Below, piece by piece: positions 33,977 to 48,168 of a stretch of DNA of 64,000 nucleotides (the stretch's first letter is position 1; each line of letters starts with the position of its first letter). Origin of the DNA: an uncultured Alphaproteobacteria bacterium (GTDB lineage: Bacteria > Pseudomonadota > Alphaproteobacteria > CAAGCB01 > CAG-977); NCBI GenBank assembly GCA_944391535.1, contig CALXTY010000001.1, positions 20-64,019 on the forward strand, given 5' to 3'. The translations under genes were made by a program, and so were the position numbers. The notes beneath the pieces are model-generated. The model did not search any database and was not told the DNA's origin. It saw only the letters and a list, made by a program, of their open reading frames with translations.

Positions 33977-35296
33977 TTAAACGGTTTCGCCAAACAGATC
34001 GTAGTCGTCCGCGTCCGTGATTTTGACGTTGACGAATTGTCCGGCTTCAACGGGTTCGGGGCAGGAAAAAAAGACTTTTCCGTCAACGTCCGGTCCGTTG
34101 GAAAAATCCCGTCCGACATAAAGATCTTCCTCTTCGTCAAAGCCTTCGCATAAAACGTTTCTGATCTGACCGATACAGCTTTGTTGATAGTCCTGACTGA
34201 TTTTCGCCTGTTGCGTCATAAGCAGATCAAAACGCTCTTGTTTGATGTCTTCGCCGATCTGATCCGTAAAATCATAAGCGGGCGTTCCTTCTTCCCGGGA
34301 ATAAGCGAACGCGCCCAATCGGTTGAATTTTGTTTCTTTGACAAACTTGAGCAATTCTTCGAACTGTTCGTCCGTTTCCGCCGGAAAACCGACTATCAGC
34401 GTTGTGCGAATGACGATGTCCGGAATTGCGCGGCGAAGCTTTTCGATCACGGATTTGATCTGCGCTTTGTCGCCGTGTCTGTTCATACGCTTTAAAACGG
34501 GATCGCTGATGTGCTGGATCGGCATGTCGATATAGGGTAAGACACGAGGATTGTCACGCATTTCGGCAATGAGTTCGTCCGTTATTTTATCGGGATAACA
34601 ATAAAAGATCCTGATCCACGGAATGTTTGTTTCCTCTTTTAACCGGCGCAACAGTTCCGGTAAGGCGTTCTTTTTATAAAGATCTTCGCCGTAACGCGAA
34701 GTGTCTTCCGCAATCAGATTCAGCTCTTGAATGCCGGCGGCTTCCAGATCCTGCGCTTCCTCAATGATGCTTTCGATCGTGCGGGAACGATAGCGCCCGC
34801 GTATTTTCGGAATGGCGCAATAAGAACAACGGTTGTTGCACCCTTCGGAGATGCGCAGGAAAGCATAGGGCGCGTCATCGGACAACATTCTTTCGCCTTC
34901 AATGGACGTTTGCTCGTAATCTCCGAAGCTTTGATATTTTTCGTTTTTAAAAGACTGCCGGATCGTGTCAACGATTTGATGAATGCCGGCCAATCCCGTC
35001 ACCGCATCGATTTCGGGCAGCTTTTCCAGAATTTGTTCGCGCCAGCGTTCCGCCAGACAACCGGTGACAACCAGCTTTTTTAACTTTCCCGTTTTTTTCA
35101 GTTTGGCAATCTCTTTAATTGTTTGGATTGATTCTTCTTTGGCGTCGCCGATAAAACCGCAAGTGTTAATCAGAATGACTTCCGCTTCTGCGGCGTTTCC
35201 CGTGATTTCGTAATCGGCGTTATCCAAATGCGCCAACATCATTTCGGTGTCGATCGTGTTTTTGGAACACCCCAGAGAAATAAATCCGATTTTCAT
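33977..35296 (-). CDS. rimO: Ribosomal protein S12 methylthiotransferase RimO
   Basis: MTTase N-domain cysteines, radical-SAM CNNRCSYC, and a C-terminal TRAM domain. Size 439 aa. Confidence 0.8.
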   Translation of the reverse strand: MKIGFISLGCSKNTIDTEMMLAHLDNADYEITGNAAEAEVILINTCGFIGDAKEESIQTIKEIAKLKKTGKLKKLVVTGCLAERWREQILEKLPEIDAVTGLAGIHQIVDTIRQSFKNEKYQSFGDYEQTSIEGERMLSDDAPYAFLRISEGCNNRCSYCAIPKIRGRYRSRTIESIIEEAQDLEAAGIQELNLIAEDTSRYGEDLYKKNALPELLRRLKEETNIPWIRIFYCYPDKITDELIAEMRDNPRVLPYIDMPIQHISDPVLKRMNRHGDKAQIKSVIEKLRRAIPDIVIRTTLIVGFPAETDEQFEELLKFVKETKFNRLGAFAYSREEGTPAYDFTDQIGEDIKQERFDLLMTQQAKISQDYQQSCIGQIRNVLCEGFDEEEDLYVGRDFSNGPDVDGKVFFSCPEPVEAGQFVNVKITDADDYDLFGETV

Positions 35297-35354
35297 GCAG
35301 TCCTGCCCTTAAAATTTTTTCGGTATAATAAACGCCGGTAACGGAAAGTCAAAC

Positions 35355-35780
35355 CTATAAACGATTTATTTTGTTTTTTTCCGATTTAAGCAAGTCTTTT
35401 AAAGAGATTTCTTTCATTTGTTTTCTGATTTTTTTATTCAGCGAAGCCCAGACTTTGCACGCCGAACAATTTTCGGATTTCGGACAAAAATCTTTGTCAA
35501 AGACGCAATCGACCAGAGCGATGTTTCCTTCCATAGCCTCGACGATTTCCAAAAGCGAGATTTCTTTGGGCGGTTTTGCCAGCATGAAGCCGCCTTTTGC
35601 GCCGCGGAAAGAATCAACCAGACCGGTCTGATTCAGTTTCAGGATCAACCGGCTGATATATTTTTCTGAGATTTCTTGAGAAGAAGCGATATCTTTCATC
35701 AGTCTGGGTTCCTCTTTGGCATACAGAGCCAGATCGAGTAAAATTCTTAATCCGTAGCGTCCTTTGGTTGATATTTTCAT
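35355..35780 (-). CDS. Rrf2-family transcriptional regulator (IscR/CymR-like, Cys-containing)
   Basis: wHTH N-terminus (MKISTKGRYGLRILLDLA) and a C-x-x-C-x-x-x-C-type cysteine cluster. Divergent from cysK. Confidence 0.75.
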   Translation of the reverse strand: MKISTKGRYGLRILLDLALYAKEEPRLMKDIASSQEISEKYISRLILKLNQTGLVDSFRGAKGGFMLAKPPKEISLLEIVEAMEGNIALVDCVFDKDFCPKSENCSACKVWASLNKKIRKQMKEISLKDLLKSEKNKINRL

Positions 35781-35849
35781 GACGGAGCCTTTTTTTAAGA
35801 GAAGATGTTTTTTATACTACCATTTCAGTCAGGATTGACAAACGAAATA

Positions 35850-35868
35850 AAAGTTTTATTTCAACTTT
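35850..35868. promoter_or_regulatory. Inverted repeat AAAGTT-n7-AACTTT in the Rrf2/cysK divergent intergenic region (candidate operator)
   Basis: Perfect 6-bp dyad overlapping a putative cysK promoter (TAGAAT -10 at 35877-35882). Confidence 0.25.
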
Positions 35869-35923
35869 AAAAGTCATAGAATGGCGGGCAACGGTCAATC
35901 TTTATTTTGAAAGAAGAAAAACA

Positions 35924-36856
35924 ATGGCGAAGATATACAAGACGGTTTCGGAATTAATCGGTCACACCCCTTTGATGGAATTATCGAAATATGAAAAAGC
36001 CGAAGGAGCAAAGGCTTTGATTTTAGCCAAGTTGGAAATGTTCAATCCGGCGGGATCGGTCAAGGATCGGGTGGCGAAATCGATGATTGACGATGCGGAA
36101 AACAGGGGGCTTTTAAAAGAAGGATCCGTCATTGTGGAACCGACCAGCGGGAACACAGGGATCGGTTTGGCGTGTGTCGGGTTGTCGCGCGGTTATAAAG
36201 TGATATTGACGATGCCCGAAACGATGAGTGTCGAGCGGCGCAGTTTGTTAAAAGCGTACGGGGCGCAGATTGTTTTGACGGACGGATCGAAAGGCATGGC
36301 GGGCGCGGTTGAAAAAGCCGAAGAAATCGCCAAGCAAACGCCGAACAGCTTTATTCCGGGACAATTTTCGAACCCGTCCAATCCGGCGATTCACGAAAAG
36401 ACGACCGGTCCCGAAATCTGGCAGGATACGGACGGGAAGGTTGACTTTTTTGTTGCGGGAGTCGGTACCGGCGGGACATTGACGGGTGTCGGGCGTTATT
36501 TGAAAGCGCAAAATCCGAATGTTAAGATCATTGCCGTGGAACCGGATTCTTCTCCCCTTTTGTCGGAAGGCAAAGCGGGACCGCACGGATTGCAGGGGAT
36601 CGGGGCGAATTTTGTTCCCGAAACGCTGGATCGCGGCATTTATGACGAAATTATTCGCGTTACGGACGAACAAGCGTATGAAACAGGGCGTCTTTTGGCG
36701 CGTCGGGAAGGGCTGTTGGTCGGCATTTCTTCTGCGGCGGCCGTTTATGCGGCTTTGCAAATCGCCAAACGAGAAGAAAATGAAGGAAAGACGATCGTCG
36801 CTTTGTTGCCTGATACCGGCGAAAGATATCTGTCAACGCCAATGCTTTCGGAATAA
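35924..36856 (+). CDS. cysK: Cysteine synthase A (O-acetylserine sulfhydrylase)
   Basis: PLP-lysine motif NPAGSVKDR, the TSGNTG loop, and the GTGGT glycine-rich loop. Confidence 0.9.
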   Translation: MAKIYKTVSELIGHTPLMELSKYEKAEGAKALILAKLEMFNPAGSVKDRVAKSMIDDAENRGLLKEGSVIVEPTSGNTGIGLACVGLSRGYKVILTMPETMSVERRSLLKAYGAQIVLTDGSKGMAGAVEKAEEIAKQTPNSFIPGQFSNPSNPAIHEKTTGPEIWQDTDGKVDFFVAGVGTGGTLTGVGRYLKAQNPNVKIIAVEPDSSPLLSEGKAGPHGLQGIGANFVPETLDRGIYDEIIRVTDEQAYETGRLLARREGLLVGISSAAAVYAALQIAKREENEGKTIVALLPDTGERYLSTPMLSE

Positions 36857-36859
36857 AAC

Positions 36860-37930
36860 TTAGAAAGTTGATTTTTCAAGGGTTACGGTCGTATCCAATC
36901 GTAATAACAGGTCGGTCAGACGTCTCAGGAAATCACCTCTGAGAACACGCAGAGGGACTTCTTTTCCCTGTTTGCTTTGGAAACTGATTTTATCCGGAGA
37001 TTTAATAAAGTTTGCAATCGTTTGCGCGATATCGGCGTTTCTTTGCCTGTGCGCATTGGAAAAAGACAGGTAAGAGACTATTTTTTGAATGCCTTTATTA
37101 CTCAATTCGGCGGGGCTGGGGGTATTGGGTTGACGCAAGTAAAGCGTGTCGATGTATTTTTTATATCCTTGCACCAAAGCTTTTTCCGTATAGGCAAAAG
37201 ACAAAGACGAAACGGAAGCGCCGTCTAAGAAGTTTTTCAAATCCGTCAACGAATTTCCTTTTTGAACCAAGTGTTTAAAGGCTAACAACAGCTGTCCCTG
37301 CTGCGCGTTGGAAATGTTTTCAAAAGTGATTGAGCCGCCCCAATGCCCCAGACATTTATCATCAATATCGGCTTTCAGGATCATTTTTTTAGCTTGCGGG
37401 TAATACGTATATTCTCCTTTAACGTTGGCGGATACATGATTGCATCCGGCCAATAACAAAGCATACAGAGGATTATCAATCAAATCTTGGGCAGGATTGA
37501 AAAAGGCTAAGGTATCAATAACGTTTTCATCCGATTTTTTTAACAGCCGTGCGATATCGATCAGGCGGAAAGAAACGTTTTTTGCACTAAAAGACAATTT
37601 TGTGGCGATATGATTTGTTTCTTTATAGTGGTGAACGACGAAGGTTTTTATAGTATTTTTTAAAGCGGGCAAGTCATTTAAACGAACTGACACATCTTTT
37701 AAGACGGCAAGATCGGAAACGGATAGATCCAAATTTTGATAAGAGATGGCGTTGCTTAGTTTATTGCGGTTTAAAAAGTTATGGATATTTTTTTGTTCTT
37801 CGTCTTTTTGCAAGAAGACCATGAAAACACCGCAAGCCGTAAACAGCAGAAGCAGAATCGTTACGGCGACCCACATACTTTTTGTCATGAATCGTTCTCC
37901 TGTCTGTACGGGGCGTGATAAGGCATCCAA
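36860..37930 (-). CDS. Hypothetical membrane-anchored periplasmic protein
   Basis: N-terminal TM and no known motifs. Overlaps the upstream unknown gene by 46 nt (operon). Confidence 0.4.
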   Translation of the reverse strand: MDALSRPVQTGERFMTKSMWVAVTILLLLFTACGVFMVFLQKDEEQKNIHNFLNRNKLSNAISYQNLDLSVSDLAVLKDVSVRLNDLPALKNTIKTFVVHHYKETNHIATKLSFSAKNVSFRLIDIARLLKKSDENVIDTLAFFNPAQDLIDNPLYALLLAGCNHVSANVKGEYTYYPQAKKMILKADIDDKCLGHWGGSITFENISNAQQGQLLLAFKHLVQKGNSLTDLKNFLDGASVSSLSFAYTEKALVQGYKKYIDTLYLRQPNTPSPAELSNKGIQKIVSYLSFSNAHRQRNADIAQTIANFIKSPDKISFQSKQGKEVPLRVLRGDFLRRLTDLLLRLDTTVTLEKSTF

Positions 37931-39588
37931 TTGGGTTTTTCATGTCTTTTGCGGATCAAACCGATCAAGTCGGCGACTTCGGCACAAGCTTCCTGTTCAC
38001 ACGCGGCGGCGGAAGACAATTCCAGAACACCTTCGGCGAAAGGAGCCGTTTTTTTGTGTTGTTTTTTTTCTTCCGACGTCATCAAACGCAGTCTGCCGCT
38101 GACAATATGCCATCCCGTCCGGTTTAACAAACCGCTGGTTTGCGTGATCAGGAATTCCGACGGCCATTGAGCCCATGCTTTATCCAGTCCTAAAGAAGCG
38201 ACATTTACCAACATATTTACCCTGATGGGTTTTTGTGTGATTGCCGTGGCTGTCAACATTGCGGGCAGGTTATCGATTTTGTCGACGCCGATCATATAAG
38301 CCAGTCTTCCCAAGTAATCGGATTTTGTCAATTCATTATAATCGGCCATCATCAGCTGATGTTCGCGTAAATCTTCGGCTCGTCTGGCATTTTCCCGCAA
38401 GCGTGCCAGATTTTGAGTTTTATCGGAAACGATGGTCCATTTTCCCCCCGGTTTTCGTTCCAGAACAGCGGCATAAATTAATTTTTCTTCCGCACTTTCC
38501 GTATCGGTATTTTTTGTTTCCGGCAGATCCATTCCCGGTATGCCCTGAGGAACGGTTGTCGCAAAGAATTTCATTTGTCTGGCGCCGAGGCAGAAGATAT
38601 CTGCAAAGCTTTCCGCCGTTCTCAGAATGTTATCGGTGACGGTATTTTCCAAAAACAGCTCTTCGTTTTCCGTTACGGCGGCAATTGTGAAAGGCGCGCA
38701 CCCCGACCATGGAGAGTAGCCCCCGTTTTTTTTGTTACGTTGACTTTTTAAGAAACCCAGATAGTGAATTTTTAATTCTGGATCCGAATCGATCAGGTAG
38801 CTGAGGATTTGATTGTTTTTATCTGCGCCGTAACGGTTCAGCAGGACAAGGTTGAGATTTTTTCGACCGGTAAAGCGTCCTTCCGTGAAATAGCCGTCAA
38901 GAGTTGTTTCCAGATGTCCCTTTTCATTAAAAACGGAGACTTCCGCACGTCCATAGATCAGGTTTTCCGAACAAGAATTGCTGCCGACGCTAATGAACCA
39001 GTTTTTAACGTTATCGGCTGTTTTATCGGTTGTATAAAGAATGGAGCAACTTTTATCTTTGGAATAAATTCTGTGTTCCAGAGCCGTTTGCGGATCAATA
39101 TGTGCGACAATTTTTTGTTTTCCCGCCGGCGGAGCCCATTCTTTGACGGGGAAACCGTCTTTGGATCGAGCGGTATTGACGGCGGCGGCTTGTAATTGTC
39201 GGATTTTTACTTTGAGCGTGCCTTTTTCCGGTTTCCAGTTGTCTGTTGCCGAAGCCGATCCCTGATAGACCAAAGTGTTTGCGCTGTATCCGTCAATTAG
39301 TGCTTGCAAGGCGGAAGGGCATTTGTTGTTTAAAACCAATGCGACTTTTGTCATTAAAGCATTCAATGCTTTTTCTTTGAACGCGGATTCTTCTTGCGCG
39401 AAGATTTTTAAATTTAATATGTCGTCGCACCATTGCCCTGAATTGGCTTCGGCGAATACTTCGACGCCTTCTTTTTCGGAATAGGCGATTCTTTTCATTT
39501 CATGTCCAGTTTGTATGTCAAGCGTTTGAGCGCTTGCCCGAATTGTCATGAAAAAAAATAAAGTCGCTGTTTTAAAAAAACTGTTCAT
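37885..39588 (-). CDS. Hypothetical secreted protein (567 aa)
   Basis: Signal peptide MNSFFKTATLFFFMTIRASAQ. No recognisable domains. Confidence 0.4.
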   Translation of the reverse strand: MNSFFKTATLFFFMTIRASAQTLDIQTGHEMKRIAYSEKEGVEVFAEANSGQWCDDILNLKIFAQEESAFKEKALNALMTKVALVLNNKCPSALQALIDGYSANTLVYQGSASATDNWKPEKGTLKVKIRQLQAAAVNTARSKDGFPVKEWAPPAGKQKIVAHIDPQTALEHRIYSKDKSCSILYTTDKTADNVKNWFISVGSNSCSENLIYGRAEVSVFNEKGHLETTLDGYFTEGRFTGRKNLNLVLLNRYGADKNNQILSYLIDSDPELKIHYLGFLKSQRNKKNGGYSPWSGCAPFTIAAVTENEELFLENTVTDNILRTAESFADIFCLGARQMKFFATTVPQGIPGMDLPETKNTDTESAEEKLIYAAVLERKPGGKWTIVSDKTQNLARLRENARRAEDLREHQLMMADYNELTKSDYLGRLAYMIGVDKIDNLPAMLTATAITQKPIRVNMLVNVASLGLDKAWAQWPSEFLITQTSGLLNRTGWHIVSGRLRLMTSEEKKQHKKTAPFAEGVLELSSAAACEQEACAEVADLIGLIRKRHEKPNWMPYHAPYRQENDS

Positions 39589-39649
39589 GTCGGCAACTAT
39601 AAAATATAATTGACAAAAATGACAGTATTAAAACGAAAAGGAAGAAAAA

Positions 39650-40651
39650 TTGATCGTTCCGGATAAAAAAACAGCAACATACCTCAACGAACCGGTTACT
39701 CCGAAAGGGGTTTTGCGTTTATGTCGGGCGGGTGTGGTGTCTGCATTTGACTTTTTAAAAGCGGCGGCATTGTGCCGGTCAGATAAAAAATGGAGCAAAT
39801 TTATTGTTTTGATACTGCGTTTTTTATCAGGACTGAGCTTTTTGTCGGCAATCTTTTTTTTCACCATATCTCAATGGGACTTTTTTTATCGGACAAGCGG
39901 TTTCACTCTTTTGTGCGTTTTGTTTGTTTTGTGCGCATGGTTTCGCGACCGTTTCGGAGCTGCCGATTATGTCGGTGCCGGTTTGATCGGATTTATGATT
40001 TTTTTGCCGGATGTTGTTTTTAGAACCAACGTGTTTTTGTATGAACAGTTTTTTTTATGGTTTGTTTTGTTGGTTGTCTGGTCTTGTTTTGCAAGACAAT
40101 GCGGTCTTTGGCTGTTGAGCTTTTTTGTTCTCAACGTTGCAATTCTTTTATACGGCGTCCAATTTGTCGTGCCTTCTTTTATTTTCAGTTTGTCTGAATT
40201 TTGTCTTTGGTCGGCGCTTTTTAATTTGAGCTGTTTGATCGTACTGGAAAAAGTCTCGGAAAAAAGACCGGATCTCATTTTGAAAGGATTTCGTTTTTTT
40301 CCTCTGTTATGGGCTTTTTCGCTTTTGCTTTTGGGGTGCGTTTCTCAATGTGTCGCGTCGGGAAAAATCAGTTTTTCAGATAGTTGTTTTTTGTTGTGTT
40401 TGTTGTCCTCAGTATTTTGCGGATATGTTTATCGCGTGCGCATACCGGACAGGCGGGTTCAACGATTGGTCTTATTGTTCGGAGCCATATGTCTTGTTTG
40501 TTTGTGCTATCGTTTCATTTATTTTTTTATTTTTGCACCTCGTTTGCAAAACACCTTGTTTTCCTTTGTTTTTTCGGGGATTGTGGGCGGCGCTTTGATC
40601 TGGGAGCGTTTGTCTGCTCTTCAAGTGAAAGGATATGAAAATGTCGACTGA
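39650..40651 (+). CDS. Polytopic membrane protein, DUF2157-like
   Basis: Soluble N-terminal ~55 aa followed by ~8 Phe/Leu-rich TM helices. First gene of a 3-gene operon ending in a GDYXXLXY protein. Confidence 0.4.
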   Translation: MIVPDKKTATYLNEPVTPKGVLRLCRAGVVSAFDFLKAAALCRSDKKWSKFIVLILRFLSGLSFLSAIFFFTISQWDFFYRTSGFTLLCVLFVLCAWFRDRFGAADYVGAGLIGFMIFLPDVVFRTNVFLYEQFFLWFVLLVVWSCFARQCGLWLLSFFVLNVAILLYGVQFVVPSFIFSLSEFCLWSALFNLSCLIVLEKVSEKRPDLILKGFRFFPLLWAFSLLLLGCVSQCVASGKISFSDSCFLLCLLSSVFCGYVYRVRIPDRRVQRLVLLFGAICLVCLCYRFIYFFIFAPRLQNTLFSFVFSGIVGGALIWERLSALQVKGYENVD

Positions 40652-41663
40652 TTTTTCTTTGCGACAATTGTTGGCGTGCCTCAACATTTCTGTTTTTGAT
40701 CCGTTGGTCGAACCTTCCTTAAAAAAAGCGTGTCAAATTGACGCCGAACAAAAAGCGGAAAAGAAAAATCCGTTTCACAGCGTTTTTTCATTAATTGTTT
40801 TGCAAATCGCCGCGTTGTTATGTTTTTACGGTTTTCGTTCGCATTCTTTTTCTGCCGGATTGTTTTTTGTTTTGTTTGGCGGAATGTTTTTATACAAGAC
40901 GACTTCTCAGGGATATCATTATTTTTTTAAAATTTATTTTTTAGCCGGTTTGCTGTTGTGGGGAGAAAAACTTTTTTTGTTTTCCCCTTTTTTGGTTGCG
41001 GTTTTGCTTTTGTTTTTTTTGTTGCGCAATCTGACCAATCCCAAAGCCAGAGATAACAGGGTTTTGTCTGCATTGTGGTTTTTTGGCGTTGTCGTTTGGA
41101 CAGTTTTTTTATTTTATCCGGAATTTTTTTCTTGGACGCTTTGTTTTTTTTCTTTATTGGGTGTTTTAGGACTGTTGTTTCCGTTGAAAAACATTTATTT
41201 TCGAGAAGCGTCCGTCATTTTTTCAGTTATGCCCCTTTTTTTATTATTGGTCAGCGAGTTATTTTGTTTAGAGCAAAAAACGTTTTTTTGTTCAAGGAAC
41301 GAATTTCTGATCGCATTTACGTTTTTCGCCGAGTTTTTTTTGCTGTTCTTTTGTCTTCGAACAGACCTTGAAACGAATGAGACGTTTTCATTTCTGTTTG
41401 CTGATTTTTTGTTGTTTTTGACAGGATTGTTTTTGTCGAACGGGTTGAGTGGAACAATTACTTTGTTTACGATCGCCTTTTTTACCGATGCTCGTGATTT
41501 GGGACGTTCGGCGATAATTTTATTTTCGTGTTTTTTGCTGACTTTCTTTTTATCTTTGCCTCTGTCTTTTCTGACGGCGGGGTGGGTTTGTTCTTTTTCG
41601 GGGCTTGTTTTTGCTTTGTTTTATATTCGCTTAAAACGTTTTTGTCTGCAGGAGAATAAGTGA
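40635..41663 (+). CDS. Polytopic membrane protein, DUF4401-like
   Basis: ~10 TM helices. Overlaps its neighbours by 17 nt and 4 nt (translational coupling). Confidence 0.4.
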   Translation: MKMSTDFSLRQLLACLNISVFDPLVEPSLKKACQIDAEQKAEKKNPFHSVFSLIVLQIAALLCFYGFRSHSFSAGLFFVLFGGMFLYKTTSQGYHYFFKIYFLAGLLLWGEKLFLFSPFLVAVLLLFFLLRNLTNPKARDNRVLSALWFFGVVVWTVFLFYPEFFSWTLCFFSLLGVLGLLFPLKNIYFREASVIFSVMPLFLLLVSELFCLEQKTFFCSRNEFLIAFTFFAEFFLLFFCLRTDLETNETFSFLFADFLLFLTGLFLSNGLSGTITLFTIAFFTDARDLGRSAIILFSCFLLTFFLSLPLSFLTAGWVCSFSGLVFALFYIRLKRFCLQENK

Positions 41664-42214
41664 TGCGTCGTTTTGTCGTCTTGTTTTGTCCTGTGCTTGT
41701 TTTGGTCGTTTTGATCGGTCGATATGTTTCTGATTCTCGATTGTATCATTCGCAAACGATTCTTTTATTGCCGGTATCCGTCTTGCAAATGGGGCAAGAT
41801 ACTTTTTCTTCATATGTTCGATTGCGATATGACAATTTTATTCCGGTTCGCGATTTGTCCGATAAAAAAGGCGTCATTGTCGTGGACAGATTAAACGACG
41901 GTCGCGTTGTTTTTGTCAGCGTTGCATCGGATCGTCCGTTGCGCCCTAGAGAAGTGTTATTAAAATATGAGATTGTTCCCTCTTTATCTTTTGACGATCA
42001 AAAGAAAGAAGCGAACATTCGTTTTGCTTCGGATTTTTTTCGTTTTATCAAAAAGAAAAAACGACACCTTTCAGCCGTTCGATATGCTGTTGTACACGTA
42101 GACGATGCGGGCAATACCGTTTTGACCGGATTGGCGGACGGTAACGGAATTTTATTGGTTAAGGGGTTGAGGGGGGCTTTTTTTGACAGTCATCGAAATT
42201 CACCCAGAAAATAA
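41660..42214 (+). CDS. GDYXXLXY-domain protein (184 aa, N-terminal TM)
   Basis: Size and topology match the family. The motif SYVRLRYDNF corresponds to GDYxxLxYDi. Confidence 0.5.
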   Translation: MMRRFVVLFCPVLVLVVLIGRYVSDSRLYHSQTILLLPVSVLQMGQDTFSSYVRLRYDNFIPVRDLSDKKGVIVVDRLNDGRVVFVSVASDRPLRPREVLLKYEIVPSLSFDDQKKEANIRFASDFFRFIKKKKRHLSAVRYAVVHVDDAGNTVLTGLADGNGILLVKGLRGAFFDSHRNSPRK

Positions 42215-44021
42215 AGTATTTTTCTTTAATTTTATCTGGAACGTTCGGGGCGGGTTTGACGAAACAAAAGCGATCTTTTTGCAACAACAGTTTTCCCAGA
42301 AAAGTTTGAGAGTTAAAAACGACAATCTCTTTTTTGAATTGTTTGGGCAAATAGTAATAAGGATTGTCCAAAATAATCGTTTTGACACGCCTTTCTTGGA
42401 GTAAATTTTTCGCTTCGATCAAATTTTTTCCATGCAGGATCTTGTAAGCGGTGATAATTCCTTGGGCATTGGAATGATAAGGCGATCCGATCACGCCCCG
42501 TCCCGATCCCCAAGCTGTTTCCGGTCCTCTGGAAGAAGATGTTAAAATACTGCCGTTTTCTTTTGAGATATAAGGCAGATATTCATCTGGATATGTCAAC
42601 ATATTTTGAGATTGCAGTTGAGTATCGTAAGACAGGCAGAGCAAAAAGAAGAAAGCGCATAGCAAATAGATGCCACATGGGATGATCAAGACGCTTTTAA
42701 AGCAATTTTTGTGCAGGAAAGTCAATTTTTGATACCAGATATGCAGACAAAGAGACATCAACAATGCGGCAAAGACGGCTCCTGTTCGCCCGAATCTTCT
42801 GCTGAGCAGCGTCATGACGGTAAAGAACAAGACGGGCACAAGAATGATGATTAACAATTTTTTAGATTGTTTTGGGGCGAAGATCAGCGTTGGAACAGAC
42901 AGACAGGTTGCTAGCATCAGCAGACCGTTGAATTTGATCAACGCACTTGTTTTGCCGAAAGTTGGCAATAATTCAGAGATATATTTTGCCCAAATGTCAA
43001 ACAGCTCTGGAGAAATCGGAGACGTAAAAACATTTTTGGCTCCGAACAGGAACAGCAGGAAGCCGAGACACAAAAAGGAAGCAAAAGAAATAAAGAACAA
43101 ACGGGACATAAAAGAGGAAAGGAGACTTTCTTTTTCAAAAAACTCTTCCATATAGAAGGAAACGAAAGCAAGTCCGATAACGGTGACCAACAAGACGGAC
43201 AATCTTCCGTTATCAGGGAAAAGCAATCCCTGCATAGGCGGGTTTATAATCAGACAAAAAGCGGCGGTTAAAAAGAAATATTGAGTAAAGAATCTGATTT
43301 GTGTCATGTTTTGCTTTTTAATCAGCCAGACAAAGATCATTCCGGCGATAATCAGCATATTGTTCAAGAAACCTTCGGGTGTTGTCCAAACAGACAATCC
43401 GGCGATCAAACCGGCGGTTTGAAAGAAAGCGATATTTTGGGTTTTAAAGCCGCGCATCAAACAGCCCAGGATAATGATTTGCAAAAGATTTAACAAGATA
43501 TGGTGATCAGCCCTGCCGGCGGTAAACAGGACAAGAACGGCAAATTGACAGAAATAAAAAGTCAGGAACAGCAGTCTCAGGATAGGGCCGAAGTATGCTT
43601 TTCCCGTCCAGATCAACGCGATCGAAGATAAAAGGGCTATCACGATTTGATACAGGAAACACCCGTACAGGACGGCTTGTTTTACGTCCGTGAACGGCAG
43701 GAAAGGAAGGCTTGTCGCAAACAAGACCATATCCATGGCTCTGGTAAAATGCAGAATTTGTCCGAAAGGATAATTATCATGCATATATCTGATTTCCGCC
43801 CATGAACCGGACTGAATAAAGTCGATTAAGCGCAAGGCGTGAGTATAATTATCGGTTTCCTGTAAACTTAAATTAGAAAAGTGCAACAGAAACAGTTGCC
43901 AGATTAAGATAAAGAAAGAAACAATCACATATTCATATTTAGAATACAGAGAAGGGAAATTTTTTAAAGAAGATAAAGGATTAAAAATCAAAGAGATCTC
44001 CTTGTCTGGTATCAACATCAT
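42159..44021 (-). CDS. Polytopic membrane protein, GT-C-fold glycosyltransferase-like (paralog of 27592..29301)
   Basis: ETDNYTHALRLIDF...HDNYPFGQILHFTRAMDM motif shared with the paralog. The ORF-track start at 44153 would overlap tdk by 173 nt, so the start is set at the internal Met pair (44021). Confidence 0.4.
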   Translation of the reverse strand: MMLIPDKEISLIFNPLSSLKNFPSLYSKYEYVIVSFFILIWQLFLLHFSNLSLQETDNYTHALRLIDFIQSGSWAEIRYMHDNYPFGQILHFTRAMDMVLFATSLPFLPFTDVKQAVLYGCFLYQIVIALLSSIALIWTGKAYFGPILRLLFLTFYFCQFAVLVLFTAGRADHHILLNLLQIIILGCLMRGFKTQNIAFFQTAGLIAGLSVWTTPEGFLNNMLIIAGMIFVWLIKKQNMTQIRFFTQYFFLTAAFCLIINPPMQGLLFPDNGRLSVLLVTVIGLAFVSFYMEEFFEKESLLSSFMSRLFFISFASFLCLGFLLFLFGAKNVFTSPISPELFDIWAKYISELLPTFGKTSALIKFNGLLMLATCLSVPTLIFAPKQSKKLLIIILVPVLFFTVMTLLSRRFGRTGAVFAALLMSLCLHIWYQKLTFLHKNCFKSVLIIPCGIYLLCAFFFLLCLSYDTQLQSQNMLTYPDEYLPYISKENGSILTSSSRGPETAWGSGRGVIGSPYHSNAQGIITAYKILHGKNLIEAKNLLQERRVKTIILDNPYYYLPKQFKKEIVVFNSQTFLGKLLLQKDRFCFVKPAPNVPDKIKEKYFIFWVNFDDCQKKPPSTP

Positions 44022-44622
44022 TCGTTTCAGAGGGTTCATAGACGGAACTGAAAGGATAATGTTTCGCGCATCTGGGCTCATAGATGTCGGCGGCGCCCAG
44101 TTCAATATCGGATTTTGATCCGCTGCATTTATAAGTGAAGATGGCATCTTCATTGCAAATGGCGCATCGTGCGTGCAAGGGGATGCATCTGTCGGCGATT
44201 TTTTTCAGTTTTGCGATAATTTCGAAAGGCTCTCCTTTCCAGTTCATATCAAGTCCGCAACAAACGACATTCAGTCCCCGATCAATCAACGTTTGGATGC
44301 AGGCGATGATGTCTCCGCCGAAGTAAGGTTCCGTAAAGAACTGGATTTCATCAAAAAAGACAGCCTGAGCTTTTTCAATGGCGTCCGATGAAAGAATCTC
44401 GTCCGTGTTTGTCAAATTGAACGCTTCTGCGGCGACGCCGTCATGTGTTTTGATTTCACAGATACCGTATCTGGTATCGAAAGACGGCTTGATCAGCATC
44501 ATTTCTCCGTCAAACGATCGGGCTTTTTTTAACAATGCGGATGTTTTTCCTGCGAACATAGGGCCGGTGATGACTTCGAGCGAACCTTTCGGCATATTTT
44601 TGTTTCCAATTATTGACGACAC
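43981..44622 (-). CDS. tdk: Thymidine kinase
   Basis: P-loop GPMFAGKTS, FFDEIQFF, and a C-terminal Zn ribbon (CxxC...CxxH). Confidence 0.85.
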   Translation of the reverse strand: MSSIIGNKNMPKGSLEVITGPMFAGKTSALLKKARSFDGEMMLIKPSFDTRYGICEIKTHDGVAAEAFNLTNTDEILSSDAIEKAQAVFFDEIQFFTEPYFGGDIIACIQTLIDRGLNVVCCGLDMNWKGEPFEIIAKLKKIADRCIPLHARCAICNEDAIFTYKCSGSKSDIELGAADIYEPRCAKHYPFSSVYEPSETNDVDTRQGDLFDF

Positions 44623-45017: not shown

Positions 45018-46799
45018 GTGAAAAAAATGGCAAAAAAAGTTATTAATTTTATGTGTACGGCATTTCGTGACGGTTTTCAGTCCGTTTTCGGAATGCGGGT
45101 TCTTCCCAAGGATTATTTTCCTGCGATTGAAATGGCGAAAGATGCCGGTATCCGCTATTTTGAAGCCGGCGGCGGCGCGGCGTTTCAGTCGGCTTTTTTC
45201 TACTGTAACGAAAACGCCTTTGATGTGATGGATAAGTTCCGCGAAGTCGCGGGGTCAGACGCGAATTTGCAGACGTTGGCTCGCGGTATCAACGTGGTCG
45301 GCTTGGATTCCATGTCGACCGATTTGATCAAATTGCATGCCAAATTGTTCAAAAAGCACGGCATGACGACGATTCGCAATTTTGACGCGCTGAATGATCC
45401 GAACAATCTGATTGTTTCGGGGCAAGCCATTAAGGATGCCGGTTTGCAACATCAGATGACGATCACGATCATGTCTTTGCCGCCCGGTTGCGAAGGGGCG
45501 CACGATCCCGATTTTTATGAGCAGCGTTTGCGCGCGGTTTTGGACGCGGAAGTTCCTTTTGATTCGTTGTGTTTAAAAGACGCGTCGGGGACGTGCACGC
45601 CGGCGATTGTTCATGAAACGATCAAGCGGATGCGCAAATTGACGGACAAGCCGATATCTTTCCATACGCACGAAACGGCGGGAACGTCCGTTCTGTGTTG
45701 TATGTCGGCGATTGAAGCCGGAGCGGATACGGTGGATTTGTCATTGGCGCCTGTTTCGGGCGGGACGTGTTCTCCGGACGTTTTGACGATGTGGCACGCT
45801 TTGCGCGGAACGGATTATGTTTTGGACGTCGATCCGCAGAAGATTTTGGAAACGGAAGAATTTTTAAAGAACGCTTTAAGCGAATACCTGTTACCTCCGG
45901 AAGCCACGAAAGTCGAACCGCGCGTGCCTTGGTCTCCGTTGCCCGGCGGCGCGTTGACGGCGAACACGCAGATGTTGCGTGACAACGGCATTATGGATAA
46001 ATTCCCCGAAATCGTCAAAGCGATGGAAGAAGTGGTTCGCAAAGGCGGTTACGGAACGTCCGTGACACCGGTTTCTCAATTCTATTTCCAACAGGCTTTC
46101 AACAACGTCATGCAAGGGCCGTGGAAAAAAATCGCCGAAGGGTACGGCAAAATGGTGTTGGGCTATTTCGGACGCACGCCGCATGAACCGGATCCCGAAG
46201 TGGTCAAGATCGCTTCGGAACAGTTGGGGTTGGAACCGACGAAGGAATCTCCGTTGGCGATTAACGACCGCAATCCGAAAAAGCAGGTTTCTCATTTTGT
46301 TGAAGTCCTTAAAGAAAACGGTTTGCCGCAAACCGATGAAAACATCTTTATCGCCGCCGCTTGCGGGGATAAAGGGATCGCTTTCTTAAAAGGGGAAGGC
46401 AAGATCGGTGTCAGATATAAAGAAAAACCGCGTGCGACTTCGGGCGATTTCAATGTGACGGTTGACGGCAAAAATTACAAAGCCTCTTTGAACGGCGATA
46501 CGGTTGTCGTGAACGGAAAATCGTTCAATGTGACGGTGGGCGCCGCGGGGCAGACGGTCGCAAAGCCGGTGAATGCTCAAGGAACGGCGACGGATGTCGT
46601 TTCCCCCGTTCCGGGAACGGTGATCAAATTGTTGGTCAAGGAAGGCGATCAAATTACAAAAGCGCAACCGATCGCGATTTTGGAAGTCATGAAAATGGAA
46701 AATCCCATACCTGCTCCCGCAGACGGCATTGTTGAAAAGATTGCCGTTCATCAAGGTGATCAGGTGGTGACCGGTCAATTGTTGATGACGCTGAAATAA
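45018..46799 (+). CDS. oadA: Oxaloacetate decarboxylase alpha subunit (carboxyltransferase + biotin carrier)
   Basis: Pyruvate-carboxyltransferase TIM-barrel N-domain and a C-terminal biotinyl domain with EVMKME. Confidence 0.9.
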
Positions 46800-46809
46800 G
46801 GGGGGTTCG

Positions 46810-48168
46810 ATGGATTCCGACACACAGATTTTTAAAGCGCAAAGACGCCACAAATTTATCATGTGGACGGTCGTTGCTTTATGCGCGCTGTTTTCATTGT
46901 GTAACATTTTGGCGGCGGCATCCGGCGGACGGATCGGCCAAATGTTTTCAGAATATATGGATAACCATGAATCTTTTGCTCTGTTGGTTAAATCGACAGG
47001 CCTGTACGGCTTTTTTGCCGACACGGGAACGGCGGTGTCTTCGACGGGCAAAGAAATGCTGGTTTCCATGGGGATCGGTCAACTGATTATGATCGGCATC
47101 AGCTTGGTTTTGATTTATTTGGCGATTGCCAAGGGATTTGAACCGTTATTATTGATTCCGATCGGATTCGGCGGTTTGTTGTCAAATGCGCCCGGAGCCG
47201 GCGTGGCCGAAGTTTTAGACGGCGTGACAGGCTTTTTGATGTATATTTATAACATCGGGATCGCGCCTCCGAGCATTTTCCCGTTGATTATTTTTATGGG
47301 CGTGGGAGCCATGACCGATTTCGGTCCGATGATCGCCAACCCCAAAGTCGCCTTGTTGGGCGGCGCCGCGCAGTTCGGTATTTTTGCGACCGTTCTGGGA
47401 GCTTTGGCGTTAACGGATATGGGATTGGTTGATTTTTCATTGAAACAAGCGGCTTCCATCGGGATTATCGGCGGAGCCGACGGCCCGACGGCGATCTTTT
47501 TGACGGGACGCTTGGCACCCGAATTGATGGGGGCTATTGTTGTCGCGGCCTATTCCTATATGGCGTTGGTGCCGATTATTCAGCCGCCGATCATGCGCGC
47601 TTTGACAACGGTTGAAGAACGTAAGATCAAGATGAAACAATTGCGTGAAGTCACACGTAAGGAAAAGATCATTTTCGTGTTCTTGGTTGTTTTGTTGTGC
47701 GTTCTTTTCGTTCCTTCGGCGGCGCCGTTGATGGGAATGTTGATGTTCGGCAATTTGCTCAAAGAAAGTAAAGTTGTTGATCGTTTGGCTAAAACGGCGG
47801 CAAATGATCTGTGCAATATCGTGACGATTTTTATCGGATTGACGGTCGGATCGAAATTGTCGGCGGACAAGTTTTTGGCAAAAGAAACGCTGGGTGTTTT
47901 GATTTTGGGGCTTGTCGCTTTTTCAATAGCCACTGCGGCCGGTGTTTTAATGGCGAAGCTGATGAATTGTTTCAGTAAGGAAAAGCTCAATCCGTTAATC
48001 GGAGCGGCCGGAGTCTCTGCAGTGCCGATGGCGGCTCGCGTTGCCGATCGTGTGGCGAAAGAAGCTGACCCGACGAACTTTATATTGATGCATGCCATGG
48101 GACCGAACGTTTCGGGCGTGATCGGATCGGCTGTTGCCGCCGGTATATTGCTGGTGATGTGCAGTTGA
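46810..48168 (+). CDS. oadB: Oxaloacetate decarboxylase beta subunit (Na+ pump)
   Basis: Polytopic membrane protein of the Na+-transporting decarboxylase beta family, following oadA. Confidence 0.85.

Follow-up and report, generated by a model that had tools for sequence, protein, structure and literature searches.

The closest described relatives of the genes considered here belong to the Pfam families DUF2157 (PF09925), DUF4401 (PF14351) and GDYXXLXY (PF14345), which together make up a bacterial membrane module that is common, yet has no solved structure and almost no literature. Searches of the literature under the Pfam, InterPro and COG identifiers of the three families returned nothing functional. 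Ravi et al. (2024; PMC11237479) equated the N-terminal transmembrane (TM) helices of LiaF with DUF2157 and unified them as the sensory domain 'LiaI-LiaF-TM'. In addition, a GDYXXLXY protein of Fusobacterium nucleatum co-purified with FtsX and EnvC (PMC5915739), and a GDYXXLXY-type gene was up 1.9-fold in co-culture (PMC9848294). Here we analysed a 64,000-nucleotide stretch of contig CALXTY010000001.1 (assembly GCA_944391535.1) from an uncultured gut alphaproteobacterium, hereafter called the window, whose numbering is used throughout. Three consecutive genes at 39650–42214 very probably encode remote homologues of DUF2157, DUF4401 and GDYXXLXY, which gives the operon its identity; judged by sequence, it is a diverged sister lineage of the canonical triad and not a bona fide member. 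A first-pass annotation of the window had named the same three families and described the triad as having no assigned function, and the literature searched on DUF2157, DUF4401 and GDYXXLXY indeed reports none.

Remote homology of the three proteins

The operon consists of the following genes:

39650–40651, plus strand: gene 1, 333 aa, TTG start; polytopic membrane protein, probable remote DUF2157-type homologue
40641–41663, plus strand: gene 2, 340 aa from the likely ATG (the ORF opens at 40635, 342 aa); polytopic, probable remote DUF4401 homologue
41660–42214, plus strand: gene 3, 183 or 184 aa, GTG start; single-pass protein with a predicted extracytoplasmic beta-rich domain, probable remote GDYXXLXY homologue

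The list of open reading frames (ORFs) has all three on the plus strand at 39650–40651, 40635–41663 and 41660–42214, as first annotated. The products of genes 1 and 2 are almost wholly hydrophobic, in agreement with their earlier description as very hydrophobic polytopic proteins with overlapping starts; the overlap was confirmed, with the start of gene 2 shifted to 40641. In word-indexed searches, the homologues of genes 3, 2 and 1 came to only 14, 19 and 26 clusters, respectively. Chance ORFs are disfavoured because these clusters have conserved lengths and many invariant columns.

Canonical alignments for comparison were built from 80 metagenomic loci, with bridging sequences left out; these loci were kept from a scan of JGI metagenomes with a canonical GDYXXLXY alignment, which revealed at least 585 relatives. 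The TM helices of the gene 1 product are preceded by ~48 aa of N-terminal cytoplasmic sequence rich in K/R. The protein matched the Pfam DUF2157 model with 27.4 bits (E 3.2e-6, residues 24–154 on model positions 3–146), below the gathering threshold of 32.4. Matches to DUF2157 at E ≤0.1 were found in 15/25 gene 1 relatives, and 5/26 carried a precomputed PF09925 mark. Alignment of the gene 1 family with 58 canonical DUF2157-type sequences using hhalign gave a probability of 99.3% (E 2e-20, 277 columns), and alignment with a Pantoea protein gave 94.8%. Against a local hidden Markov model (HMM) built without bridging seeds, gene 1 scored 65 bits.

The gene 3 product scored 22.4 bits (E 1.2e-4) on the Pfam GDYXXLXY model, again below the gathering threshold (27), and 38 bits on the local HMM. 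Eight of its 14 relatives matched GDYXXLXY at E ≤0.1, and the gene 3 family aligned with 84 canonical GDYXXLXY sequences at 99.0% (hhalign, E 6e-18, 157 columns). The earlier assignment of this 184-aa single-pass protein had relied on a GDYxxLxY match at SYVRLRYD. The string is present, and the profile-based family homology, the size (about 170–190 aa in the family) and the N-terminal TM anchor agree with it, but the G and D of the signature are lost.

For gene 2, the window protein itself gave no match to Pfam DUF4401 (threshold 30.4 bits) at E ≤1, and only 1/19 of its relatives did (E 5.6e-4). A HMMER search of 1.84 billion proteins with the gene 2 family found 23 proteins. Among the proteins reached by the gene 2 profile in this set was P0076 (E 4.2e-9), which scores 60.2 bits on PF14351 over model positions 2–306. 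Another relative, the 638-aa protein P0070, has a gene 1-like N-terminal half and thus represents a natural gene 1–gene 2 fusion. When P0076 was removed from both sides, the extended gene 2 family aligned with 77 canonical DUF4401 sequences at 96.8% (hhalign, E 2e-10, 296 columns); the close clade alone gave 87% (E 4e-6, 116 columns). Single canonical DUF4401 sequences went undetected by the gene 2 profiles in hhalign, and only alignments on both sides matched. On these comparisons, the proposed gene 2–DUF4401 link is the weakest of the three and depends on intermediates.

Cross-controls between the gene 1 family and DUF4401, and between the gene 2 family and DUF2157, gave hhalign probabilities below 1%. 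A paralogous relationship between genes 1 and 2 was also considered and rejected (hhalign probability <1%). Across the relatives, the weak Pfam matches fell on PF09925, PF14351 and PF14345, the models that the first-pass annotation had proposed for searches, and no other family was matched consistently; all scores of the window proteins lay below the gathering thresholds, and gene 2 was reached through intermediates. An NCBIfam scan of the triad returned nothing, and a PADLOC scan gave no match for six proteins of the window or for three canonical proteins.

A self-contained module in diverse bacteria

All three Pfam domains were adjacent and co-linear in 33/33 non-redundant metagenomic loci. 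Using local HMMs with Pfam-validated seeds, we found a DUF2157-type part followed by a DUF4401-type part directly upstream of GDYXXLXY on the same strand in 44/44 loci with at least 2.3 kb of upstream sequence, and the DUF4401 part was present in 68/69 loci with at least 450 nt upstream. The three parts were separate genes in 29 of the 44 loci; DUF2157 and DUF4401 were fused in 12, and DUF4401 and GDYXXLXY in three. With 333, 340 and 183 aa, the window proteins have the usual sizes of the split form. Plasmids of PLSDB provided further canonical examples, reached via a weak match of gene 3 of a bridging locus, L013 (described below):

Pantoea agglomerans pCB1A: 735-aa DUF2157+DUF4401 fusion, plus GDYXXLXY (L016)
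Acinetobacter cumulans: 599-aa fusion, plus GDYXXLXY
Fusobacterium vincentii: 606-aa fusion, plus GDYXXLXY
Paenibacillus cellulosilyticus: all three domains in a single 762-aa protein (L018, 4126–6414)
Aeromonas caviae: three separate genes (L020)

Searches of plasmids by tblastn with P0076 and with gene 1 of L013 gave no match. Across L018, L081, L088, L090, L016, L017 and L019, the split state, both pairwise fusions and the single polypeptide were all seen, and these fusion states define the relative topology of the parts. The module ranges over Proteobacteria, Bacillota and Fusobacteriota, including Acinetobacter baumannii and Fusobacterium. The earlier statement that the triad recurs in diverse bacteria was thus borne out, by the 33/33 loci as well as by the occurrences in Pantoea, Acinetobacter, Aeromonas, Fusobacterium and Paenibacillus. 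In A. baumannii VB1190 (L021, 5153–6703), the gene upstream of GDYXXLXY is missing from the gene table and no ORF there is longer than 516 aa, which may mean that the DUF2157–DUF4401 fusion of this clinical strain has become a pseudogene through a frameshift.

The window triad shares with the canonical module the three parts, their order and strand, the overlapping or adjacent genes, the sizes (about 330, 350 and 175 aa in canonical loci), the N-terminal cytoplasmic segments, the single-pass ectodomain subunit and a significant profile–profile homology of all three proteins. Neither an assignment to unrelated families nor a lack of conserved co-occurrence, the two outcomes that would have spoken against the first-pass annotation, was observed.

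The flanks of the canonical loci were examined for partner genes. The 144 flanking ORFs (the two nearest per side) fell into 139 Pfam families with at most four ORFs each, chorismate synthase being the commonest, and no ATPase, kinase, regulator or enzyme recurred among them. Because no partner family recurs, the canonical module is self-contained.

These flanks also bear on the proposal that the triad works as a Lia/Psp-type module for sensing envelope stress or for anchoring, in which the N-terminal four TM helices of DUF2157 would be like the LiaI/LiaF TM domain and the GDYXXLXY ectodomain would act as the sensor. Like LiaI-LiaF-TM, the module has a small multi-TM membrane domain without an enzymatic motif, and, according to PMC11237479, the Pfam DUF2157 model covers the N-terminal TM helices of LiaF. 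The co-purification with FtsX and EnvC (PMC5915739) and the co-culture rise (PMC9848294) count for the same proposal. However, the window proteins differ from LiaI-LiaF-TM in being about 330 aa long, with many more TM helices and two obligate partners. PspA/LiaH, LiaSR, Toastrack, histidine kinase and PspC were absent from the 25 most frequent families of the 144 flanking ORFs, in which Response_reg and GGDEF occurred only twice each. Furthermore, no fusion of the module carried an output domain, and PspA/LiaH, LiaSR, PspC, Toastrack and histidine kinase were all absent from the window around 35–47 kb. We therefore regard a Lia/Psp-type function as improbable.

A bridging locus and two exported companion proteins

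Homologue clusters of the window triad were, where named, labelled 'MAG: Alphaproteobacteria bacterium' (MAG, metagenome-assembled genome). When the gene 3 alignment was run against a collection holding a single genome for each GTDB species, it reached eight loci, all in uncultured alphaproteobacterial MAGs of the same clade; two are labelled rumen and one 'uncultured Rhodospirillaceae bacterium'. The triad is thus conserved in gut and rumen alphaproteobacterial MAGs, and the whole neighbourhood is syntenic within the clade. In a gene-neighbourhood comparison of the kind proposed in the first-pass annotation, the order and adjacency of the three genes were conserved across genomes.

P0076 lies in the metagenomic locus L013 (ERZ16268204), which bridges the window and the canonical module. 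With the same gene order, L013 scores 56 bits on DUF2157, 60 bits on DUF4401 and 27.1 bits on GDYXXLXY and, unlike the window, passes the Pfam cut-offs. The window families aligned with its genes 1, 2 and 3 at 99.2%, 94.9% and 98.8%, respectively (hhalign). Its motifs are intermediate: YQT persists in its gene 1, KS in its gene 2, and TEY is kept as well. Like the window, L013 has two divergent exported proteins, homologous to those of the window (E 4e-48 and 4e-7), ahead of genes 1-2-3 and a convergent thymidine kinase (TK) gene behind them, but it lacks the 664-aa polytopic gene that lies between gene 3 and the TK gene in the window. The divergent genes and the adjoining spacer in the window are as follows:

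36860–37888, minus strand: membrane-anchored exported protein of ~342 aa with an N-terminal TM anchor (ORF listed to 37930, 356 aa; likely start M15)
37885–39588, minus strand: 567-aa exported protein with a signal peptide and 8 Cys
39589–39649: divergent intergenic region between the 567-aa gene and gene 1, 61 bp, AT-rich

Neither exported protein matched Pfam, NCBIfam or PADLOC, consistent with the earlier description of two unknown secreted proteins divergent from the triad, for which we likewise found no known family. Both occupy the same divergent position in L001, L003, L013, L023 and L025, while the outer flanks of these loci differ (cysK/Rrf2, peptidase M3, radical SAM, or NUDIX plus an unknown protein). 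Homologues of the pair were absent from 1700 ORFs of the 80 canonical loci. As far as these comparisons reach, the two exported proteins are lineage-specific companions of the triad.

Gene starts and translational coupling

The TTG start of gene 1 is supported by a GGAAG ribosome-binding site 5 nt ahead of it and by the N-terminus M-I-V-P-D, which is invariant in 25/25 relatives. The start of gene 2 is most likely ATG 40641, the second ATG of the ORF, as indicated by an AGGA 7 nt upstream, by the invariance of M3 and by a database homologue 340 aa long. From this ATG, gene 2 overlaps the stop codon of gene 1 by 11 nt. For gene 3, the start is GTG 41660 or ATG 41663, with AGGAG upstream, and the gene overlaps the TGA of gene 2; its database homologue has 183 aa. 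These start/stop overlaps with ribosome-binding sites amount to classic translational coupling of genes 1-2-3. The 61-bp intergenic region presumably holds the promoters of both directions, and only weak matches to the promoter consensus were found in it.

At 40–42 kb the window has a GC content of 0.38 and an AT skew of −0.43, with a GC content of about 0.44–0.47 in the flanks. T-rich codons, which follow from the many Phe and Leu residues of these membrane proteins, account for the composition at 40001–42000; recent acquisition does not, as the conserved synteny argues against it.

Replacement of conserved polar residues

Canonical DUF2157 proteins carry the motifs FFxAxNW and GQxYQTGADxxxLFxxW (90–100% conserved in the sample of 58). 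At these places gene 1 of the window reads FFTISQW and DVVFRTNVF..QF..W, so that GQxYQTGAD has become DVVFRTNVF and all that remains of the two motifs is F, F, W, T, F and W. The canonical C-terminal motif of DUF4401 is YYYxLxxxLLxKS, with K and Y both at 100%. Gene 2 has F303 L304 .. A313 G314 at this motif, and the invariant Lys is Ala in 21/21 family members. Canonical GDYXXLXY proteins have LAPVDPRSLMQGDYMxL, FFxEG and ARYG...G...L..L. Most of the conserved polar residues of PVDPRSLMQGDY and FFxEG are replaced in gene 3: VSVLQMGQDTF stands in place of APVDPRSLMQ, and DPR, QGD and EG have changed to QMG, FSS and KK, respectively. Within FSSYVRLRYD (residues 49–58), only Y..L.Y of GDYxxLxY is kept and both G and D are Ser; within the gene 3 clade, the D is kept in 7/14 members and the G in none.

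When mapped by hhalign onto canonical positions that are at least 80% conserved, the window is identical at 12/31 in gene 1, 4/15 in gene 2 and 13/38 in gene 3; for polar positions only, the counts are 3/9, 1/5 and 3/12. Trp, Gly and hydrophobic scaffold positions are retained. We describe the operon as a diverged sister lineage because all three proteins fail the gathering thresholds and all three signature motifs.

The triad also diverges much faster than the adjoining genes, as shown by the identities to the related locus L025:

Thymidine kinase: 69%
567-aa exported protein: 62%
356-aa exported protein: 49%
Gene 3: 30%
Gene 2: 27%
Gene 1: 25%

The exported pair, at 62% and 49%, is better conserved than the triad, at 25–30%. 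Hence, the window differs from the canonical module in its sub-threshold Pfam scores, in the replacement of most conserved polar residues, in a triad that evolves much faster than its neighbours and in the two exported proteins alongside.

These data could also be explained if the window triad were an ordinary member of the module doing the canonical job, its low scores and lost motifs reflecting fast drift and its exported pair and TK reflecting plain synteny. Even between canonical members, tblastn scarcely recovers the DUF4401 part. The window has preserved the scaffold positions, the order of the genes and their coupling, and the TK, which has no plausible functional tie, is kept beside the triad just as the exported pair is. 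However, each of the three subunits has exchanged residues that show 90–100% conservation in Gammaproteobacteria, Bacillota and Fusobacteriota, and the clade has fixed others in their place (K→A in 21/21, F49 in 14/14, D121 in 18/25). The five-gene block, moreover, has stayed intact while the outer flanks were reshuffled. Considering both sides, we find ordinary membership unlikely.

Proposed architecture and function

An AlphaFold2 model of gene 2 is all-helical with ~12 membrane helices and has a mean predicted local distance difference test (pLDDT) score of 78. Both polytopic subunits probably have their N- and C-termini inside, and the GDYXXLXY domain probably lies outside, as inferred from the natural fusions and the K/R-rich N-termini. 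The GQxYQTGAD loop, with a mean of 0.2 for K+R and 1.4 for D+E, would lie outside, since these values fit such a location. The YYY..KS motif falls in the turn of the last DUF4401 hairpin, next to the ectodomain anchor in the fused forms.

Because the parts are always adjacent and in order, are often fused and have no other conserved partner, we propose one self-sufficient inner-membrane complex. This would be a heterotrimer of two polytopic subunits, with at least about 20 TM helices in total, and one TM-anchored beta-rich ectodomain. The motifs FFxAxNW, GQxYQTGAD, YYYxLxxxLLxKS, PVDPRSLMQGDYMxL, FFxEG and ARYG would in that case all be exposed on the outside of the cytoplasmic membrane, where together they might make up a composite site for the ATP-independent binding or handling of a component of the envelope or outer leaflet. 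The joint erosion of the motifs in one lineage fits the idea that the motifs of the three subunits work together, and we consider such an outward-facing composite polar site a fair conjecture, with somewhat less than an even chance of being real.

Alternatively, the module might be a secondary transporter driven by the proton motive force, or a lipid or precursor translocator, with a periplasmic accessory subunit; its layout would then be analogous to that of MmpL-MmpS, CopD-CopC or PqiA-PqiB. The at least about 20 TM helices with very short loops would suit a transporter, as would the single-pass beta-rich partner that is always encoded downstream and the lack of an ATPase gene nearby in any locus. 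A Foldseek search of the PDB with the gene 2 model returned nothing (best E 0.13, TM-score ≤0.32) and hence no structural similarity to a solved transporter; the conserved polar residues cluster at predicted membrane boundaries and not mid-membrane; and genes 1 and 2, not being paralogues, do not form a pseudo-symmetric pair. From this analysis a transporter or translocator seems quite unlikely.

Within the window lineage, the complex would have been remodelled into a membrane platform that works with the two exported proteins and no longer performs the canonical activity. Such remodelling is probable because the polar residues are mostly replaced while the scaffold is kept, the triad diverges fast and the pairing with the exported proteins is constant. 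Its co-option together with the exported pair in particular is a doubtful proposition, and no less speculative is the view of the five-gene block as a new envelope system, in which the scaffold, its original periplasm-facing site gone, would have been recruited for the anchoring, assembly or export of the pair. A diverged triad with a composite outward site and lineage-specific remodelling is nevertheless our best overall explanation, to which we give an even chance.

Several points weigh against this explanation. The fast divergence and the loss of polar residues could be mere relaxed constraint, and the link to the exported proteins could be residual synteny in one lineage, as the TK gene is similarly retained. 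The topology derives from the fusions, the N-termini and the loop charges, and the hydropathy segmentation used was too crude for a full topology. Structural searches gave no help: besides the null Foldseek result for gene 2, the gene 3 model, a TM helix at residues 3–28 followed by a beta-rich domain, is of low confidence (pLDDT 53) and had no meaningful PDB match by Foldseek, and a sequence/profile search of the PDB with the GDYXXLXY alignment gave no match. Finally, the canonical sample was collected by the pattern DPR[SA][LMI][LM]QGD, so that the selection itself accounts for part of the invariance at these nine residues; however, the DPR..QGD residues are also kept in seven PLSDB proteins that came from tblastn.

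Neighbouring genes

The genes beyond the five-gene block in the window are as follows:

33977–36856, upstream flank: RimO/MiaB-like radical-SAM methylthiotransferase, Rrf2-family regulator and cysteine synthase (PALP)
42159–44153, minus strand: 664-aa polytopic ORF, convergent with gene 3; real start probably near residue 45 (relatives have 611–613 aa)
43981–44622, minus strand: thymidine kinase (Pfam TK, 129 bits)
45018–48168, plus strand: oxaloacetate decarboxylase alpha and beta subunits (Na+ pump type), syntenic across the clade

The 3' end of gene 3 overlaps that of the 664-aa ORF by 56 nt. The latter gene was found between gene 3 and the TK gene only in the nearer clade (L001, L003) and was absent in L013, L024 and L025; it is outside the conserved unit. 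The first-pass annotation had called the convergent membrane protein GT-C-like. A convergent polytopic ORF is indeed present, but the GT-C label has no profile support: there was none in Pfam, NCBIfam or the PDB, the best hit being TIGR04154 (STT3) at E 0.29. The ORF has a conserved loop after TM1, ETDNYTHALRLIDFIQSGSW (ETDxYTHAxRL..F..SG.W), which is reminiscent of GT-C enzymes of the ArnT/PMT type. An N-terminal 'M-[IL]-[IV]-P-D-K' shared by gene 1 and the 664-aa ORF was dismissed as coincidence, since in the latter it precedes the probable start and is not shared by L001 or L003.

The TK gene stays convergent downstream of the triad in L013, L024 and L025 despite the 25–30% identity of the triad, for no obvious functional reason. 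A small oxaloacetate decarboxylase gamma-subunit gene lies upstream in the relatives L001 and L025. The flank at 33977–36856 is conserved only in the nearer clade.

Implications

This analysis establishes the DUF2157–DUF4401–GDYXXLXY module as an obligate three-part unit without accessory genes and defines its conserved motifs. For the window itself, three remote homologues and two orphan exported proteins of an uncultured gut alphaproteobacterium are now annotated, and the two co-conserved exported proteins are candidate partners of the triad in this lineage. The lineage represents a natural 'experiment' in which most polar motif residues were replaced together while the scaffold was kept. 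If the five-gene block is indeed a new envelope system, this coordinated erosion would reveal that the three canonical motifs are one composite active site.

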